Source: Escherichia coli
Lineage (GTDB): Bacteria; Pseudomonadota; Gammaproteobacteria; Enterobacterales; Enterobacteriaceae
DNA: 64,000 nt
Strand: one strand, 5' to 3'
NCBI RefSeq assembly: GCF_003334355.1
Contig: NZ_QOWP01000008.1
Below, piece by piece: positions 9,058 through 45,325 of this stretch. The notes below the pieces were generated by a model that ran no database searches, was not told where the DNA came from, and saw nothing but the letters and a program-made list of their open reading frames with translations. Both the position numbers and the translations under genes were made by a program. Numbering within the stretch: the first letter of the stretch is position 1; each line of letters begins with the position of its first letter.

Positions 9058-9390
9058 TCAGTTATCAGGCATTCTGGCCGGTGGAATAACCGCATTGGTG
9101 GCTTGCGCGTTGGCTTCGCTTTTTTCAACGCGTGAGCGCACCGAGCTGTCTTTGCGGAACACATCCCACGGTAATAAAAGCGTGTCCATCACAGCGGTAA
9201 ACGGCATATCGAGAATCGCCAGCGACTTAGTGCCCCAGTTGGTTTCATCATCGCCAATCATGGTGGCGCTGGCGCGGGTGCCGGGATACGTTCCTTCTTT
9301 CCCTCCGGTATGGGACATCACGCTGGAGCATCCTCCGAGTAATGCCATTCCACTGCATATCATGAACGCTAACAACACATTTCTTATCAT
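9058..9390 (-). CDS. yidQ: Outer-membrane lipoprotein YidQ (DUF1375), 110 aa
   Basis: ORF 9058..9492; start placed at MIRNVLLAFMICSGMALLGGCSS (lipobox LGGC). Confidence 0.75.
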   Translation of the reverse strand: MIRNVLLAFMICSGMALLGGCSSVMSHTGGKEGTYPGTRASATMIGDDETNWGTKSLAILDMPFTAVMDTLLLPWDVFRKDSSVRSRVEKSEANAQATNAVIPPARMPDN

Positions 9391-9564
9391 AATAAATTCA
9401 TCTGTTGATCGTGGGTGTTGGCCTGATGAGTTATAGCGATCCCTTGCTGAAAATAACATCATCATTACGTCGCTCTGTGGCGGCAATCGCACTTTAACGT
9501 TTCGTGCTGCCCCCTCAGTCTATGCAATAGACCATAAACTGCAAAAAAAAGTCCGCTGATAAGG

Positions 9565-9594
9565 CTTGAAAAGTTCATTTTCAGACCCATTTTT
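9565..9594 (+). promoter_or_regulatory. sigma32 heat-shock promoter of ibpAB
   Basis: -35 cTTGAAA (~9565-9571) and -10 CCCATtTTT (~9586-9594) with 13-14 bp spacing. Confidence 0.65.
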
Positions 9595-9599
9595 ACATC

Positions 9600-9695
9600 G
9601 TAGCCGATGAGGACGCGCCTGATGGGTGTTCTGGCTACCTGACCTGTCCATTGTGGAAGGTCTTACATTCTCGCTGATTTCAGGAGCTATTGATT
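9600..9695 (+). promoter_or_regulatory. ibpA 5' UTR (RNA-thermometer region masking the SD AGGAG at ~9682-9686)
   Basis: About 95-nt leader between the sigma32 promoter and the ibpA ATG; established ROSE-like thermosensor in ibpA. Confidence 0.45.
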
Positions 9696-10109
9696 ATGCG
9701 TAACTTTGATTTATCCCCGCTTTACCGTTCTGCTATTGGATTTGACCGTTTGTTTAACCACTTAGAAAACAACCAGAGCCAGAGTAATGGCGGCTACCCT
9801 CCGTATAACGTTGAACTGGTAGACGAAAACCATTACCGCATTGCTATCGCTGTGGCTGGTTTTGCTGAGAGCGAACTGGAAATTACCGCCCAGGATAATC
9901 TGCTGGTGGTGAAAGGTGCTCACGCCGACGAACAAAAAGAGCGCACCTATCTGTACCAGGGCATCGCTGAACGCAACTTTGAACGCAAATTCCAGTTAGC
10001 TGAGAACATTCATGTTCGTGGCGCTAACCTGGTAAATGGTTTGCTGTATATCGATCTCGAACGCGTGATTCCGGAAGCGAAAAAACCGCGCCGTATCGAA
10101 ATCAACTAA
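9696..10109 (+). CDS. ibpA: Small heat-shock protein IbpA (alpha-crystallin family)
   Basis: 137-aa product [20 protein letters not shown]...; ORF track starts 6 nt upstream at a TTG. Confidence 0.95.
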
Positions 10110-10220
10110 TTCCCTAAGGCCGCCTGGCGCGGCCTGACATCTCCATGCTCGCCGTCAGGGAGCATATGCGAATCTTCAGATTTGCAGGTACTTACTCGCT
10201 TCTTAGAAGGAGAAATGACT

Positions 10221-10649
10221 ATGCGTAACTTCGATTTATCCCCACTGATGCGTCAATGGATCGGTTTTGACAAACTGGCCAACGCACTGCAAAACGCCGG
10301 TGAAAGTCAGAGCTTCCCGCCGTACAACATTGAGAAAAGCGACGATAACCACTACCGCATTACCCTTGCGCTGGCAGGTTTCCGTCAGGAAGATTTAGAG
10401 ATTCAACTGGAAGGTACGCGCCTGAGCGTAAAAGGCACGCCGGAGCAGCCAAAAGAAGAGAAAAAATGGCTGCATCAAGGGCTTATGAATCAGCCATTTA
10501 GCCTGAGCTTTACGCTGGCTGAAAATATGGAAGTCTCTGGCGCAACCTTCGTAAACGGTTTACTGCATATTGATTTAATTCGTAATGAGCCTGAACCCAT
10601 CGCAGCGCAGCGTATCGCTATCAGCGAACGTCCCGCGTTAAATAGCTAA
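10221..10649 (+). CDS. ibpB: Small heat-shock protein IbpB
   Basis: 142-aa product [19 protein letters not shown]...; paralog of IbpA immediately downstream. Confidence 0.95.
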
Positions 10650-10664
10650 CTAGCTATTCTCTTT

Positions 10665-10692
10665 GCCCCGCCATTCTGGTGGGGCTTTTTTT
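10665..10692 (+). terminator. ibpAB Rho-independent terminator
   Basis: gccccgcc...ggtggggc hairpin followed by T7. Confidence 0.7.
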
Positions 10693-10844
10693 GTCTTTCT
10701 TCTTCAACAATGCGTTAAATTTCGCCTGTTTAAGATATTTCGGCACGTTCTTTCCCGTGATAATGTGCGCTATAAGGCAAATCTGCTTCACCGATTCAGC
10801 CATAATCCGTAGCAATTAAAATGTTATCTCAAGAGAAATGGACG

Positions 10845-12506
10845 ATGAGTGATATAGCATTAACGGTCAGTATTTTGGCTTTGGTGGCAGTCGTCGGTTT
10901 GTTTATCGGCAACGTCAAATTTCGCGGCATAGGATTAGGTATTGGCGGCGTGCTGTTTGGTGGGATCATCGTCGGCCATTTTGTTTCTCAGGCGGGGATG
11001 ACATTAAGTAGCGATATGCTGCATGTTATTCAGGAATTTGGCCTGATTCTGTTCGTTTATACTATCGGGATTCAGGTAGGGCCGGGCTTCTTTGCCTCAT
11101 TGCGCGTCTCCGGATTACGCCTCAACCTGTTTGCTGTTCTGATCGTCATCATCGGTGGTCTGGTTACCGCCATCCTGCATAAACTGTTTGATATTCCACT
11201 GCCGGTAGTGCTGGGGATTTTCTCCGGTGCGGTAACCAATACGCCAGCGCTGGGGGCAGGGCAGCAGATCTTGCGCGACTTGGGTACACCAATGGAAATG
11301 GTCGATCAGATGGGGATGAGTTACGCGATGGCGTATCCATTCGGCATTTGCGGGATATTGTTCACCATGTGGATGTTGCGGGTTATTTTCCGCGTCAATG
11401 TCGAGACAGAAGCCCAGCAGCACGAGTCTTCACGCACCAATGGCGGCGCGCTGATCAAGACTATCAATATTCGCGTTGAGAACCCTAACCTGCATGATTT
11501 AGCCATTAAAGATGTACCGATTCTCAACGGCGACAAAATTATCTGCTCGCGTCTGAAACGAGAAGAAACCCTAAAAGTACCTTCGCCAGATACCATTATC
11601 CAACTGGGCGATTTGCTGCATCTGGTGGGGCAGCCAGCGGATTTACATAATGCGCAACTGGTGATTGGTCAGGAGGTCGATACCTCGCTGTCCACGAAAG
11701 GCACTGATTTGCGCGTCGAGCGTGTGGTGGTCACCAATGAAAACGTGCTTGGTAAGCGTATTCGCGACCTGCATTTTAAAGAACGCTATGACGTTGTTAT
11801 CTCGCGCCTGAACCGTGCCGGGGTCGAACTGGTCGCCAGTGGCGATATCAGCCTGCAGTTCGGCGATATCCTCAATCTGGTGGGGCGTCCGTCCGCAATT
11901 GATGCCGTTGCCAATGTGCTGGGGAATGCGCAGCAAAAACTGCAACAGGTTCAGATGCTGCCAGTGTTTATTGGCATCGGGCTAGGCGTATTGTTAGGTT
12001 CTATTCCCGTCTTTGTGCCAGGATTCCCGGCCGCGTTGAAACTGGGGCTGGCGGGCGGACCGCTGATTATGGCGTTGATCCTCGGGCGTATCGGCAGTAT
12101 CGGCAAGCTGTACTGGTTTATGCCGCCAAGCGCCAACCTCGCGCTGCGGGAGCTGGGGATCGTGCTGTTCCTCTCGGTCGTTGGTCTGAAATCTGGTGGG
12201 GATTTTGTGAATACCCTGGTCAATGGCGAAGGGCTAAGCTGGATTGGTTATGGTGCCCTGATCACCGCCGTTCCGCTGATTACTGTTGGCATTCTGGCGC
12301 GGATGTTAGCCAAAATGAATTACCTGACCATGTGCGGGATGCTGGCAGGTTCCATGACCGATCCTCCGGCGCTGGCGTTTGCTAATAATCTTCATCCAAC
12401 CAGCGGTGCGGCGGCGCTCTCTTACGCCACTGTCTATCCGTTGGTAATGTTCCTGCGCATTATCACCCCCCAATTACTGGCGGTGCTCTTCTGGAGTATC
12501 GGTTAA
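10845..12506 (+). CDS. yidE: Putative AAE-family transporter YidE (two RCK_C/TrkA-C domains)
   Basis: ORF 10821..12506; start at [12 protein letters not shown] gives 553 aa. Confidence 0.85.
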
Positions 12507-24246: not shown

Positions 24247-24355
24247 TAATATTTGGACAAAACGCAAACTGTGATCGATACTCAACTATGCACTAAATAC
24301 GTCAAAATTCGTGCCGAAATTGCGCGTTCTGCGCGGAACACGTATACTTTCAGTG

Positions 24356-24433
24356 TTGACATAATACAGTGTGCTTTGCGGTTACCAGCCGCAGGCGACT
24401 GACGAAACCTCGCTCCGGCGGGGTTTTTTGTTA
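24356..24433 (+). ncRNA. istR: IstR-1 antisense sRNA (approximate boundaries); longer IstR-2 would start upstream
   Basis: -10 TATACT at ~24343-24348; body contains gttgacataatacagtgtgct (24355-24375), matching a segment at 24097-24117 inside the tisAB 5' region; ends at a G/C-rich segment plus T6 (~24405-24430). Confidence 0.6.
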
Positions 24434-41227: not shown

Positions 41228-41322
41228 TGGCGGAAGATCACAGGAGTCGAACCTGCCCGGGACCGCTGGCGGCCCCAACTGGATTTGAAGTCCAGCCGCC
41301 TCACCGGAGACGACGATCTTCC
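41228..41322 (-). tRNA. selC: tRNA-Sec (selenocysteine tRNA)
   Basis: 95-nt sequence whose reverse complement reads GGAAGATCGTCGTCTCCGGTGAGGCGGCTGGACTTCAAATCCAGTTGGGGCCGCCAGCGGTCCCGGGCAGGTTCGACTCCTGTGATCTTCCGCCA, with anticodon TCA and encoded CCA end. Confidence 0.95.
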
Positions 41323-41614
41323 GCGCCTCGATTGCTACATGGAGGCGGGGCGCATTATAGCTACTTCCTTGAGTTTCTACATCCCCCAGATCAGTTTTTT
41401 CCGCCTAATACACGCAGCGTATTATCACGAAAGCATTATAGTTCATATAAAACCCATATTTTACAATGATATATGAGCGGAATTAACGCTACCACGATCA
41501 CATAAAACAAGAATCATAAATTAATAACCAGATATCGGAATATTCGCTCTCACAGGGATGGTTTACAAAATGCGTTATCGGTCTCAGCACCCCTATAGCA
41601 TCAAGGAAAAGCAG

Positions 41615-42997
41615 ATGAAGAGTGAAGTGTTGTCCGTTAAAGAGAAAATTGGTTATGGCATGGGAGACGCCGCCAGCCACATTATTTTCGATAACGTAAT
41701 GTTATATATGATGTTCTTTTATACCGATATTTTTGGCATTCCTGCCGGTTTTGTCGGAACCATGTTTTTGGTCGCTCGTGCACTGGATGCGATTTCCGAT
41801 CCTTGCATGGGGTTGTTGGCCGATCGAACGCGCTCTCGCTGGGGTAAATTTCGTCCGTGGGTACTGTTTGGCGCACTGCCATTCGGGATCGTCTGTGTAC
41901 TGGCCTATAGCACGCCAGATCTCAGTATGAACGGCAAAATGATCTATGCAGCAATTACTTACACCCTACTTACCTTACTTTATACCGTCGTCAATATCCC
42001 TTACTGCGCATTGGGTGGTGTAATCACCAATGACCCGACTCAGCGTATCTCGCTGCAATCCTGGCGTTTTGTGCTGGCGACCGCGGGAGGCATGCTTTCT
42101 ACTGTTCTGATGATGCCACTGGTTAATTTAATTGGCGGTGATAATAAACCACTCGGTTTCCAGGGCGGTATCGCGGTCCTTTCCGTGGTGGCATTCATGA
42201 TGCTGGCATTTTGTTTCTTCACCACTAAAGAACGCGTTGAAGCACCACCTACAACAACGTCTATGCGGGAAGATTTACGTGATATCTGGCAAAACGACCA
42301 GTGGCGGATTGTCGGTTTACTAACCATTTTCAATATCCTGGCGGTGTGCGTACGCGGTGGGGCGATGATGTATTACGTCACATGGATTTTGGGCACGCCG
42401 GAAGTGTTTGTCGCTTTTCTCACCACTTATTGCGTGGGTAACCTGATTGGTTCCGCACTGGCAAAACCTCTGACCGACTGGAAATGTAAAGTCACTATCT
42501 TCTGGTGGACGAACGCCCTGCTGGCAGTGATTAGCCTCGCGATGTTCTTTGTTCCCATGCAGGCCAGCATCACTATGTTTGTCTTCATCTTCGTGATTGG
42601 TGTGTTGCATCAACTGGTGACACCTATCCAGTGGGTAATGATGTCCGATACCGTCGACTACGGCGAGTGGTGCAATGGTAAACGCCTGACCGGGATCAGT
42701 TTTGCTGGCACGCTGTTTGTGCTCAAACTGGGGTTGGCCTTCGGCGGCGCTCTTATCGGCTGGATGCTGGCTTATGGCGGATATGATGCGGCAGAAAAAG
42801 CGCAGAACAGCGCCACGATTAGCATCATTATTGCGCTATTCACGATTGTTCCGGCGATCTGTTATTTGCTGAGCGCGATTATCGCTAAACGCTACTACTC
42901 ACTCACGACGCACAATCTGAAAACCGTTATGGAACAGCTGGCTCAGGGTAAACGCCGTTGCCAGCAACAATTCACCTCTCAAGAAGTGCAGAACTAA
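41615..42997 (+). CDS. yicJ: GPH-family (glycoside-pentoside-hexuronide) cation symporter YicJ
   Basis: ORF 41558..42997; start at MKSEVLSVKEKIGYG gives 460 aa. Confidence 0.85.
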   Translation: MKSEVLSVKEKIGYGMGDAASHIIFDNVMLYMMFFYTDIFGIPAGFVGTMFLVARALDAISDPCMGLLADRTRSRWGKFRPWVLFGALPFGIVCVLAYSTPDLSMNGKMIYAAITYTLLTLLYTVVNIPYCALGGVITNDPTQRISLQSWRFVLATAGGMLSTVLMMPLVNLIGGDNKPLGFQGGIAVLSVVAFMMLAFCFFTTKERVEAPPTTTSMREDLRDIWQNDQWRIVGLLTIFNILAVCVRGGAMMYYVTWILGTPEVFVAFLTTYCVGNLIGSALAKPLTDWKCKVTIFWWTNALLAVISLAMFFVPMQASITMFVFIFVIGVLHQLVTPIQWVMMSDTVDYGEWCNGKRLTGISFAGTLFVLKLGLAFGGALIGWMLAYGGYDAAEKAQNSATISIIIALFTIVPAICYLLSAIIAKRYYSLTTHNLKTVMEQLAQGKRRCQQQFTSQEVQN

Positions 42998-43006
42998 GGA
43001 ACGGCA

Positions 43007-45325
43007 ATGAAAATTAGCGATGGAAACTGGTTGATTCAACCTGGCCTCAATTTGATTCACCCGCTTCAGGTGTTCGAGGTTGAACAGCAGGATAATGAAA
43101 TGGTGGTCTATGCTGCCCCCCGTGATGTGCGTGAACGTACCTGGCAGCTTGATACGCCTTTATTTACGCTGCGCTTTTTCTCCCCACAGGAAGGTATTGT
43201 CGGTGTGCGGATTGAGCATTTTCAGGGGGCGCTGAATAACGGTCCTCATTATCCGCTCAATATTTTGCAGGACGTGAAGGTCACAATCGAAAACACAGAA
43301 CGTTATGCTGAGTTTAAAAGTGGCAACTTAAGCGCGCGTGTCAGCAAAGGTGAGTTCTGGTCACTGGATTTTCTGCGCAACGGCGAACGTATTACCGGTA
43401 GTCAGGTGAAAAATAATGGCTACGTGCAGGACACGAATAATCAACGCAATTATATGTTTGAGCGGCTTGATCTTGGCGTTGGCGAAACAGTTTACGGTCT
43501 GGGAGAGCGCTTTACTGCCCTGGTGCGCAATGGCCAGACGGTAGAGACCTGGAACCGGGACGGCGGCACAAGTACTGAACAGGCGTATAAAAATATCCCG
43601 TTCTACATGACTAACCGTGGTTATGGGGTACTGGTCAATCATCCCCAGTGTGTCTCTTTTGAAGTGGGATCGGAGAAAGTCTCCAAAGTGCAGTTCAGCG
43701 TTGAGAGTGAATATCTCGAATACTTTGTTATCGACGGCCCGACGCCGAAAGCGGTACTTGATCGTTATACCCGCTTTACTGGTCGTCCGGCGCTGCCGCC
43801 CGCGTGGTCCTTCGGCCTGTGGCTAACCACTTCATTTACCACCAACTACGACGAAGCGACGGTAAACAGCTTTATCGATGGTATGGCGGAACGCAATCTG
43901 CCGCTGCATGTTTTCCACTTTGACTGTTTCTGGATGAAAGCCTTCCAGTGGTGCGATTTTGAGTGGGACCCGCTGACTTTCCCTGACCCGGAAGGGATGA
44001 TCCGCCGCCTGAAAGCGAAAGGGCTGAAAATCTGCGTCTGGATTAACCCCTATATCGGTCAAAAATCCCCCGTCTTTAAAGAGTTACAAGAGAAAGGCTA
44101 TTTACTCAAACGCCCGGACGGTTCGCTATGGCAGTGGGATAAATGGCAGCCAGGTCTGGCGATTTATGACTTTACCAATCCGGATGCCTGCAAATGGTAC
44201 GCCGACAAACTGAAAGGTCTGGTCGCGATGGGCGTTGATTGCTTTAAGACCGACTTTGGCGAACGTATCCCAACTGATGTTCAGTGGTTTGACGGTTCCG
44301 ATCCGCAGAAAATGCATAACCATTATGCGTACATCTACAACGAACTGGTGTGGAACGTGCTCAAGGACACCGTTGGTGAGGAAGAAGCTGTCTTGTTTGC
44401 CCGCTCGGCCTCCGTCGGTGCGCAGAAATTCCCGGTACACTGGGGTGGCGATTGTTACGCTAACTACGAATCAATGGCGGAAAGCCTGCGCGGTGGTTTG
44501 TCTATTGGCCTTTCAGGTTTTGGCTTCTGGAGCCACGATATCGGCGGCTTTGAAAATACCGCTCCGGCGCACGTTTACAAACGCTGGTGCGCGTTTGGTT
44601 TGCTCTCCAGCCATAGCCGTTTACACGGTAGCAAATCTTATCGTGTGCCGTGGGCCTACGATGATGAGTCCTGTGATGTGGTGCGCTTCTTCACGCAACT
44701 GAAATGCCGCATGATGCCGTATCTGTATCGTGAAGCTGCGCGTGCGAACGCGCGGGGTACGCCGATGATGCGGGCCATGATGATGGAGTTCCCGGACGAT
44801 CCGGCTTGTGATTACCTTGACCGTCAATACATGTTAGGCGACAACGTGATGGTTGCGCCGGTGTTCACTGAAGCGGGCGATGTGCAGTTCTACCTGCCGG
44901 AAGGTCGCTGGACACACCTGTGGCACAACGATGAACTCGACGGTAGTCGCTGGCATAAACAGCAGCACGGCTTCCTGAGTCTGCCCGTTTATGTGCGTGA
45001 TAACACTCTACTGGCGCTGGGCAACAACGATCAACGTCCCGATTACGTGTGGCACGAAGGCACGGCATTCCACCTCTTTAATCTGCAAGACGGGCATGAA
45101 GCCGTCTGTGAAGTGCCCGCTGCTGACGGATCGGTGATCTTTACTTTAAAAGCAGCACGTACTGGCAACACGATTACTGTGACTGGTGCGGGCGAGGCGA
45201 AGAACTGGACACTGTGCCTGCGCAATGTTGTGAAAGTAAATGGTCTGCAAGACGGTTCGCAGGCTGAAAGTGAGCAGGGGCTGGTGGTGAAGCCTCAAGG
45301 GAATGCGCTGACAATTACGTTGTAA
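43007..45325 (+). CDS. yicI: Alpha-xylosidase (GH31)
   Basis: 772-aa ORF with GH31 catalytic region (WINPYI ... KTDFGE). Confidence 0.9.

Follow-up and report, generated by a model that had tools for sequence, protein, structure and literature searches.

The DNA analysed here, a stretch of 64 kb from Escherichia coli to which we refer in its full length as the window, carries the ibpAB operon, whose features all lie on the plus strand. The ibpA coding sequence (9696-10109; 137 aa; RefSeq WP_001243437.1, small heat shock chaperone IbpA) opens with ATG 9696 and encodes a protein identical to E. coli IbpA; ibpB (10221-10649; 142 aa; WP_001243431.1) opens with ATG 10221, and a terminator scan returned a strong intrinsic terminator for the operon at 10665-10692, formed by a 9-bp GC-rich stem and a following run of T residues. 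Several complete E. coli chromosomes are 100% identical to the window over 9400-10720, and the locus (at least 80% of 9400-10720) is present in 5418 of 5426 complete E. coli genomes, as a single copy in each and chromosomal each time. At the best-matching chromosome, RefSeq annotates yidR and yidQ, a sequence feature labelled ROSE, and the genes ibpA, ibpB and yidE; on the numbering of the window, ROSE spans 9630-9702, and ibpA and ibpB start at 9696 and 10221. Relative to K-12 MG1655, a single difference is found from the promoter into the coding sequence, at 9581, which is T here and C in K-12; a second difference sits farther upstream of the promoter region. By alignment, the transcribed leader, from 9600 to the start codon, is base-for-base that of K-12 (the letters of 9540-9700 are ...GGCTTGAAAAGTTCATTTTCAGACCCATTTTTACATCGTAGCC...TTCTCGCTGATTTCAGGAGCTATTGATTATG).

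A preliminary description of the region, made from the sequence, had proposed that the open reading frames listed mechanically for ibpA and ibpB extend upstream of the true ATGs, and comparison with the RefSeq starts bears this out. The list begins ibpA at TTG 9690 (MIMRNF...), two codons too early, and ibpB at TTG 10182, 13 codons too early; for ibpB, an additional in-frame ATG is found at 10215. IbpA and IbpB share the N-terminus MRNFDLSP, and MRNFD(L/F)SP is common to the paralogs and to all recovered orthologues, the conservation of MRNF being partly built in because the pattern used for the orthologue scan itself required this N-terminus. The spacing from the Shine-Dalgarno (SD) sequence to the start codon is 9 nt for ATG 9696 and 8 nt for ATG 10221, as against 3 nt for TTG 9690 and 2 nt for ATG 10215. 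In view of the RefSeq starts, the shared N-terminus and the SD spacing, we consider ATG 9696 and ATG 10221 to be the true start codons. Two antisense frames in the same list (9465-9590 and 9520-9651) were set aside, as they came without supporting evidence. Elsewhere in the window, a check for a selC-adjacent island identified the 41330-45300 side as core yicI/yicJ DNA.

Promoter elements and the 5' end of the ibpA leader

Upstream of ibpA, positions 9565-9592 read CTTGAAA-N13-ACCCATTT, matching the sigma-32 consensus at seven of seven positions in the -35 element and at five of six in CCCCAT. This consensus has been described as CTTGAAA-13/15 bp-CCCCAT (PMC3168786), with C-CCCCATCT also given as the sigma-32 -10 element (PMC2681174), and bacterial small heat-shock proteins are induced by sigma-32 (PMC10474464). 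The -35 element, CTTGAAA (9565-9571), is an exact match; it is followed by a 13-nt spacer (9572-9584) and by the -10 element ACCCATTT (9585-9592; consensus CCCCATNT), which was assigned by pattern match and conservation. Among 58 Enterobacterales leaders (see below), conservation reaches at least 90% for TTGAAA, C9588 and T9590-9592, and A9589 does not vary; at the orthologous loci a median of 132 nt separates the -35 element from the ATG. The pattern CTTGAAA-N13-15-CCCAT occurs once in the 64 kb, with 0.04 occurrences expected (4 of 100 shuffles contained a match), and TTGAAA-N12-16-CCCATNT likewise occurs once, at the same ibpA site. A promoter scan of 9300-10900 returned no sigma-70-type site. 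A search with a sigma-54 pattern, allowing three mismatches, was uninformative (343 matches, 348 expected); the best sigma-54-type site near ibpB is TGGTAAATGGTTTGCT at 10030-10045.

The T at 9581 is a minority allele of the spacer: the exact 45-nt promoter stretch that includes it is found in 116 of the 5426 complete E. coli genomes. The allele is part of neither promoter element nor of the RNA, and it could tune promoter strength.

The transcription start was predicted in two ways. If the A of CAT is set at -11, promoter geometry puts +1 at about 9600. In a later report, the critical bulged guanine of the thermometer is numbered G71, after Waldminghaus 2009 (PMC2896394), which would put +1 at 9603 if G71 corresponds to G9673. 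A length of 102 nt, given for the published thermometer RNA in another report (PMC3981793), is compatible with a start at 9600 or 9603 plus two or three codons. Counted from a +1 predicted at 9600-9603, the leader would be 93-97 nt long, and an SD, AGGAG, is read directly at 9682-9686. The preliminary description had proposed a close match to the sigma-32 consensus, a leader of about 95 nt and an SD AGGAG at its end; the first is unique in the 64 kb and conserved in the Enterobacterales leaders, the second agrees with the length predicted from either start, and the third lies 9 nt before ATG 9696.

The ROSE element and the conservation of its hairpins

A search with Rfam models matched ROSE_2 (RF01832) to 9630-9702 on the plus strand, over the full length of the model (positions 1-73 of 73), with a score of 100.4 bits (gathering score 65; E = 3e-23); repeating the search over the whole window gave the same match, and RefSeq annotates the same feature. 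The model matched is ROSE_2 and not the rhizobial ROSE model. The element lies in the 5' UTR, directly upstream of a gene for a small heat-shock protein of the alpha-crystallin type, ibpA. By definition, a ROSE element folds into between two and four hairpins, spans from 60 to over 100 nt and carries the SD in the hairpin nearest its 3' end (PMC3669281, PMC10474464); the motif U(U/C)GCU is likewise part of the definition (PMC3669281). In the ibpA leader, three hairpins are found over a predicted 93-97 nt, the SD is part of the 3'-proximal one, UCGCU (9671-9675) stands opposite AGGAG (9682-9686), and a guanine, G9673, is unpaired both in the Rfam structure and in the minimum free energy (MFE) structure. 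Of 62 Enterobacterales leaders, 60 have the motif U(U/C)GCU ahead of the SD, as do 47 of 52 IbpA leaders from more distant alpha- and gamma-proteobacteria. That the leader corresponds to the known ibpA RNA thermometer, as the preliminary description had proposed, is supported by the full-length ROSE_2 match, by the RefSeq ROSE feature and by the identity of the leader with that of K-12; the comparison with the published ibpA 5' UTR that had been proposed as a check likewise gave 100% identity.

Folded at 37 °C, the leader to the AUG (9600-9698) adopts the same three-hairpin structure as MFE and as centroid, at -34.1 kcal/mol; shuffled sequences average -25.6 kcal/mol (z = -2.76), and only 1 of 200 folds as well. 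Hairpin I (9600-9638; -18.5 kcal/mol at 37 °C) is a stable 5' hairpin with the apex GCC-N4-GGG (9617-9619 and 9624-9626), and lies outside the Rfam model. Hairpin II (9641-9662; -9.0 kcal/mol at 37 °C) belongs to the ROSE_2 consensus, in which 9641-9645 and 9647-9649 pair with 9655-9662 to form a CCU-G-UCC/GGA-AGG core with a bulged G at 9646. Hairpin III (9670-9686; -4.1 to -4.6 kcal/mol at 37 °C; Rfam structure) sequesters the SD: CUC (9670-9672), the bulged G9673 and CUG (9674-9676) are followed by an AUUU loop and by CAG (9681-9683) and GAG (9684-9686), which leaves none of the five SD bases unpaired. The Rfam consensus adds a lower stem of two pairs, 9666-9667 with 9691-9692. The order of predicted stability, I over II over III, emerges robustly from these model energies.

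For a comparative test of this structure, leaders were recovered by one scan of genome contigs with a degenerate N-terminal coding pattern, and 58 distinct Enterobacterales ibpA upstream regions were aligned with MAFFT; the genera include Escherichia, Salmonella, Citrobacter, Enterobacter, Klebsiella-like organisms, Kluyvera, Pantoea, Serratia, Rahnella-like organisms, Budvicia and others. Over the full three-hairpin structure, 86.1% of the cells of the alignment are paired, and compensatory double changes occur in 19 of 31 pairs, in 186 cells as compared with 67 in shuffles. None of 500 shuffles reached any of the five measures, and in a control in which the 3' partners were slid by 1-3 columns pairing dropped to 40-55%. 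The inner stem of hairpin I shows double changes in six of nine pairs, with 92% of cells paired, and hairpin II in four of eight, with 93%. The core of hairpin III is nearly invariant (98.9% of cells paired; double changes in one of six pairs), and its variation is confined to C-G to U-G and G-C to G-U. Double changes are also seen in all six pairs of the hairpin I outer stem, where 55-72% of cells are paired, and in both pairs of the hairpin III lower stem, with 61%. The low value for the outer stem of hairpin I is attributable in part to misalignment in a region of variable length, and a common within-species variant at 9666 (G in many E. coli; E. albertii has T) disrupts the lower stem of hairpin III. 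Judged by the alignment, these two stems, the lower one being of 2 bp, are poorly supported. An independent run of RNAalifold recovered the inner stem of hairpin I and hairpin III. Cross-species covariation is in this way documented for hairpin I, which the Rfam model leaves uncovered.

Sequence conservation in the 5' hairpins is also pronounced: the GCC-N4-GGG apex of hairpin I is invariant in all 58 aligned Enterobacterales leaders, and the CCUGUCC/GGAAGG core of hairpin II, with its bulged G, is also present in leaders of Rhodobacterales and Aeromonas. The role of the 5' hairpins of ROSE elements has been described as not fully understood (PMC3669281). A speculative suggestion, to which we attach a low probability, is that the parts of the leader dispensable for masking of the SD are determinants for sequence-specific recognition, binding of IbpA oligomers during self-repression being one candidate role.

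A second ROSE-like SD hairpin of the operon is predicted in the ibpB leader. The MFE fold of 10110-10229 contains the hairpin CUC-G-CUUC UUA GAAG-GAG at 10195-10212, and a UCGCU motif precedes ibpB at the E. coli and Pluralibacter loci. An RNA thermometer for ibpB has been reported (PMC10410725).

Folding at different temperatures and alternative readings of the leader

The preliminary description had suggested folding the leader at 30 and 42 °C as a check on sequestration of the SD, an SD left unpaired at the low temperature being held to speak against a thermometer. In hairpin III folded in isolation (9664-9695), the SD is paired throughout, the mean unpaired probability rising from 0.009 at 30 °C to 0.035 at 42 °C; full opening of the SD, at all five bases, becomes 16 times more probable between the same temperatures (from 0.0001 to 0.0016), and at 42 °C the model still keeps over 99% of the hairpin folded. 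In the leader to the AUG (9600-9698), the SD is 98.9% paired at 30 °C, and its unpaired fraction increases about 3-fold, from 0.011 to 0.035, at 42 °C. In the model, hairpin III has to be brought to 75-80 °C before half of the population is open chain, well beyond the physiological range, so that nearest-neighbour energies miss the published behaviour. The nearest-neighbour model leaves out non-canonical pairs, which NMR of ROSE by Chowdhury et al. in 2006 reportedly revealed. Moreover, in a Vienna-based melting analysis, the predicted melting of the ibpA ribosome-binding site did not differ significantly from what is predicted for ordinary mRNAs (PMC2896394). Deletion of G9673 in silico lowered the energy of hairpin III from -4.6 to -8.4 kcal/mol, nearly doubling its stability, in agreement with the repressed phenotype and abolished thermosensing described for the deletion of G71 in the same report (PMC2896394).

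That hairpin III opens little in absolute terms at 42 °C in the model is one of the observations that would fit a leader working mainly as a protein-binding operator, repressed by IbpA oligomers and relieved by their titration onto aggregates, with this titration dominant over melting of the RNA. IbpA does bind the ibpA 5' UTR and repress its translation, both in vivo and in the PURE system, and mutations in the stem-loops abolish the repression (PMC10410725, PMC10474464); in addition, the invariance of the hairpin I apex goes beyond what stability alone requires. However, in a study that cites Waldminghaus 2009, the isolated leader, read from a temperature-independent promoter, gave 14 MU at 25 °C and an induction of about 4-fold at 42 °C (PMC3669281), deletion of the bulged G eliminates thermosensing, as cited above, and the helix that pairs the SD and bears the ROSE hallmarks is the most conserved of all. 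Operator function complements the thermometer, and as the main function of the leader we regard it as possible but doubtful.

The outcome of folding changed when the RNA was extended by 3-12 nt into the coding sequence. For leaders ending at 9701, 9704 or 9710, a competing fold is the MFE at or below 37 °C, by about 0.5-1 kcal/mol, and between about 45 and 50% of the SD is unpaired at 30 °C, a little less at 42 °C; with the 3' end moved on to 9725 or 9755, most of the SD pairing returns (0.11-0.22 unpaired). The expectation of the preliminary description was therefore borne out for RNAs that end at the AUG and failed for 3' ends at 9701-9710, in which about 45% of the SD is unpaired at 30 °C; since the outcome varies with the choice of 3' end, folding at the two temperatures is indecisive. 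More generally, folding of a single sequence at two temperatures is an unreliable test for a thermometer.

The competing fold pairs CGC (9672-9674) with GCG (9698-9700) and UCAG (9680-9683) with UUGA (9690-9693), which would occlude the start codon and leave GAG of the SD free. Its status as MFE for 9600-9701 to 9600-9710 would favour it as the functional structure at low temperature, and is countered by the alignment: the 4-bp helix is paired in 63% of cells in the 58 species and shows no covariation, 9681 and 9692 can pair in 19 of 57 sequences, 138 of 500 shuffles reach as high a percentage of pairing, and slid registers score higher. The 3-bp helix is uninformative, as the UCGCU motif and the ATGCG that the search required hold its bases constant in any case. 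In contrast, the canonical helix is the Rfam consensus and is paired in nearly all cells, as given above. We have accordingly rejected the competing fold, a functional role for which is very improbable; the folds with an open SD were not counted as a refutation of the thermometer, because the competitor is unconserved, the energies of the two folds differ by no more than the model's error and non-canonical pairs are ignored. Still less probable is that an ATG-initiated frame of 11 codons inside hairpin I (ATG 9607 to TGA 9642) acts as a short upstream open reading frame, by attenuation or translational coupling, and it was rejected: its ATG would lie 4-7 nt from the predicted 5' end and has no SD, neither ATG nor frame is conserved in the other Enterobacterales of the 58-leader alignment, and substitutions track base-pairing rather than codon constraints.

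Layered control of ibpAB and its relation to known systems

The thermometer reading remains the preferred one: the region is almost certainly the native control region of E. coli ibpAB, made up of a sigma-32 promoter and a leader that is a ROSE-type RNA thermometer. Our analysis addresses the identity of the locus, the promoter match and its conservation, the RNA family, the three hairpins with their covariation, the pairing of the SD and the relative stabilities of the hairpins; dependence on sigma-32, temperature-dependent translation and binding of IbpA are expected from published work on the identical K-12 sequence. RNA polymerase with sigma-32 (RpoH) would recognise CTTGAAA-N13-ACCCATTT and start transcription at about 9600-9603, and accumulation of sigma-32 upon heat shock would raise transcription of ibpAB. 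In the cold, hairpin III is predicted to sequester the SD through pairing of UCGCU with AGGAG, interrupted by the bulged G9673; on warming, it would open progressively and allow 30S subunits to bind. As a third layer, described in the literature, IbpA would bind its own 5' UTR and repress translation until titrated by aggregated proteins. The arrangement is a textbook case of heat-shock control in layers, with a promoter for sigma-32, a thermometer in the RNA and autoregulation by the chaperone. Both the element and its sequence are known from the literature, so that the finding is correct but ordinary; its value lies mainly in correct annotation, with ibpA and ibpB read from their ATG codons at 9696 and 10221 and not from the starts of the mechanical list.

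The promoter resembles the sigma-32 promoters of dnaK, groES, htpG and hslVU, which also have CTTGAAA and CCCCATNT-type elements at a spacing of 13-15 bp (PMC3168786, PMC2681174); the sole difference noted is that the -10 element of ibpA, ACCCATTT, opens with A, whereas the consensus of the dnaK/groES/htpG/hslVU type opens with C. Among RNA thermometers, those of rpoH and of the fourU type (agsA) are zipper-type heat-shock thermometers that mask the translation-initiation region, as is expected of the ibpA leader, and the rpoH mRNA, like the ibpA leader, is bound by IbpA (PMC10410725). Their architecture and motifs are, however, different, and they have no sequence or Rfam relationship to the ibpA element: unlike the ibpA leader, the rpoH thermometer reaches into the open reading frame, where it covers the start codon, and in fourU the SD is paired with UUUU. 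The short ROSE-like thermometers of Pseudomonas ibpA control the same gene through a thermolabile SD hairpin with U(U/C)GCU and have a 5' hairpin that is stable and unresponsive to temperature, as is expected of the E. coli element; they are much shorter and consist of two hairpins, the E. coli element having one more (PMC3669281).

The founding member of the family, ROSE1 of Bradyrhizobium japonicum hspA (RF00435), also resides in the 5' UTR of a small heat-shock gene and shares with the ibpA leader a 3' hairpin in which the SD pairs with U(U/C)GCU, the bulged G and stable 5' hairpins (PMC3669281). It differs in sequence and in having four hairpins where the ibpA leader has three, and transcriptional control in rhizobia is not known to be exerted via a sigma-32 promoter of the E. 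coli type, as found at ibpA. The E. coli K-12 ibpA thermometer (RF01832; Waldminghaus et al. 2009) is the nearest of the known systems, with the same leader, the same three hairpins, the UCGCU anti-SD and the bulged G, and differs from the region analysed here only at position 9581 of the promoter spacer, T in the window and C in K-12.

Invariant apex of hairpin I in the ibpA leader

The apex of hairpin I (9617-9626), which reads GCC-N4-GGG, showed no variation in any of the 58 distinct Enterobacterales ibpA leaders aligned, and free covariation was found in the stem beneath it. A regular-expression search recovered the apex pattern in 61 of 62 Enterobacterales leaders, as opposed to 3% in shuffled sequences. 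This element is not covered by the Rfam ROSE_2 model. Because its conservation exceeds what a stabilising hairpin would need, the apex may be a recognition site. Hairpin I also contains an 11-codon ATG frame (9607-9642; MRTRLMGVLAT*). Neither the ATG nor the reading frame is kept in the aligned leaders of other Enterobacterales, and this frame is thus probably not a translated upstream ORF.

Hairpins II and III across ibpA leaders

The core of hairpin II (9643-9660; CCUGUCC...GGAAGG) has its own bulged G, at 9646, and resembles a Shine-Dalgarno (SD) hairpin. The same core is present in 11 of 52 more distant IbpA leaders, from the Rhodobacterales and Aeromonas, where it precedes the ATG by about 51-58 nt; the loci listed with this core are L004, L037, L044, L047, L062, L102 and L117. 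Four ibpA leaders from Rahnella and Budvicia (L046, L065, L068 and L099) have about 20-60 nt inserted either upstream of hairpin II, after hairpin I, or downstream of it, before hairpin III; all four retain the UCGCU/SD hairpin, and they were excluded from the covariation alignment. The lower stem of hairpin III is 61% paired across the species aligned. Position 9666, in this stem, varies within the species, being C in the window and in K-12 and G in other E. coli strains (T in E. albertii); the variant, which is common in E. coli, leaves 9666 unable to pair with 9692 in the lower stem of the Rfam structure.

Promoter allele and other RNA genes of the window

Of the 5426 complete E. coli genomes, 4232 have an ibpA leader with at least 99% identity, while only 116 match the 45-nt promoter stretch at 9560-9604 exactly. 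Alignment to K-12 revealed a difference in the promoter spacer, at position 9581, where K-12 has C and the window T; T9581 is a minority allele and lies outside both the -35 and the -10 elements. Two other RNA genes were detected with Rfam: istR (24300-24429, plus strand; 150 bits), the sRNA that acts as the antitoxin at the tisB/istR locus, and selC, encoding tRNA-Sec (41232-41322, minus strand; 83.8 bits). selC is a known insertion site for islands. Its flank at 41330-45300 is core yicI/yicJ DNA, found in 5425 of the 5426 genomes, and the opposite flank, at 38-41 kb, has a GC content of 0.44-0.47.

The ibpA-ibpB intergenic region and the ibpB leader

A σ54 promoter for ibpB has been reported. 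Within the 3' end of ibpA, TGGTAAATGGTTTGCT (10030-10045) has two mismatches to the σ54 consensus TGGCAC-N5-TTGCW and preserves its GG and GC dinucleotides; overall, the σ54 pattern gave no more matches than chance would, 343 against 348 expected. Directly 3' of the ibpA stop codon, a GC-rich hairpin (10117-10135; GGCCGCC...GGCGGCC-like) is predicted, with no run of T residues, and may affect how the ibpAB transcript is processed or how stable it is. Two further predicted hairpins (10145-10165 and 10167-10186) occupy the intergenic region alongside it. In the ibpB leader, a second ROSE-like hairpin (10195-10212; CUC-G-CUUC UUA GAAG-GAG) is predicted, which would mask the ibpB SD and has both the UCGCU motif and a G bulge (10198); an Rfam search at this hairpin returned no match with E values of up to 1. 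An RNA thermometer of ibpB distinct from that of ibpA is mentioned in the literature (PMC10410725).
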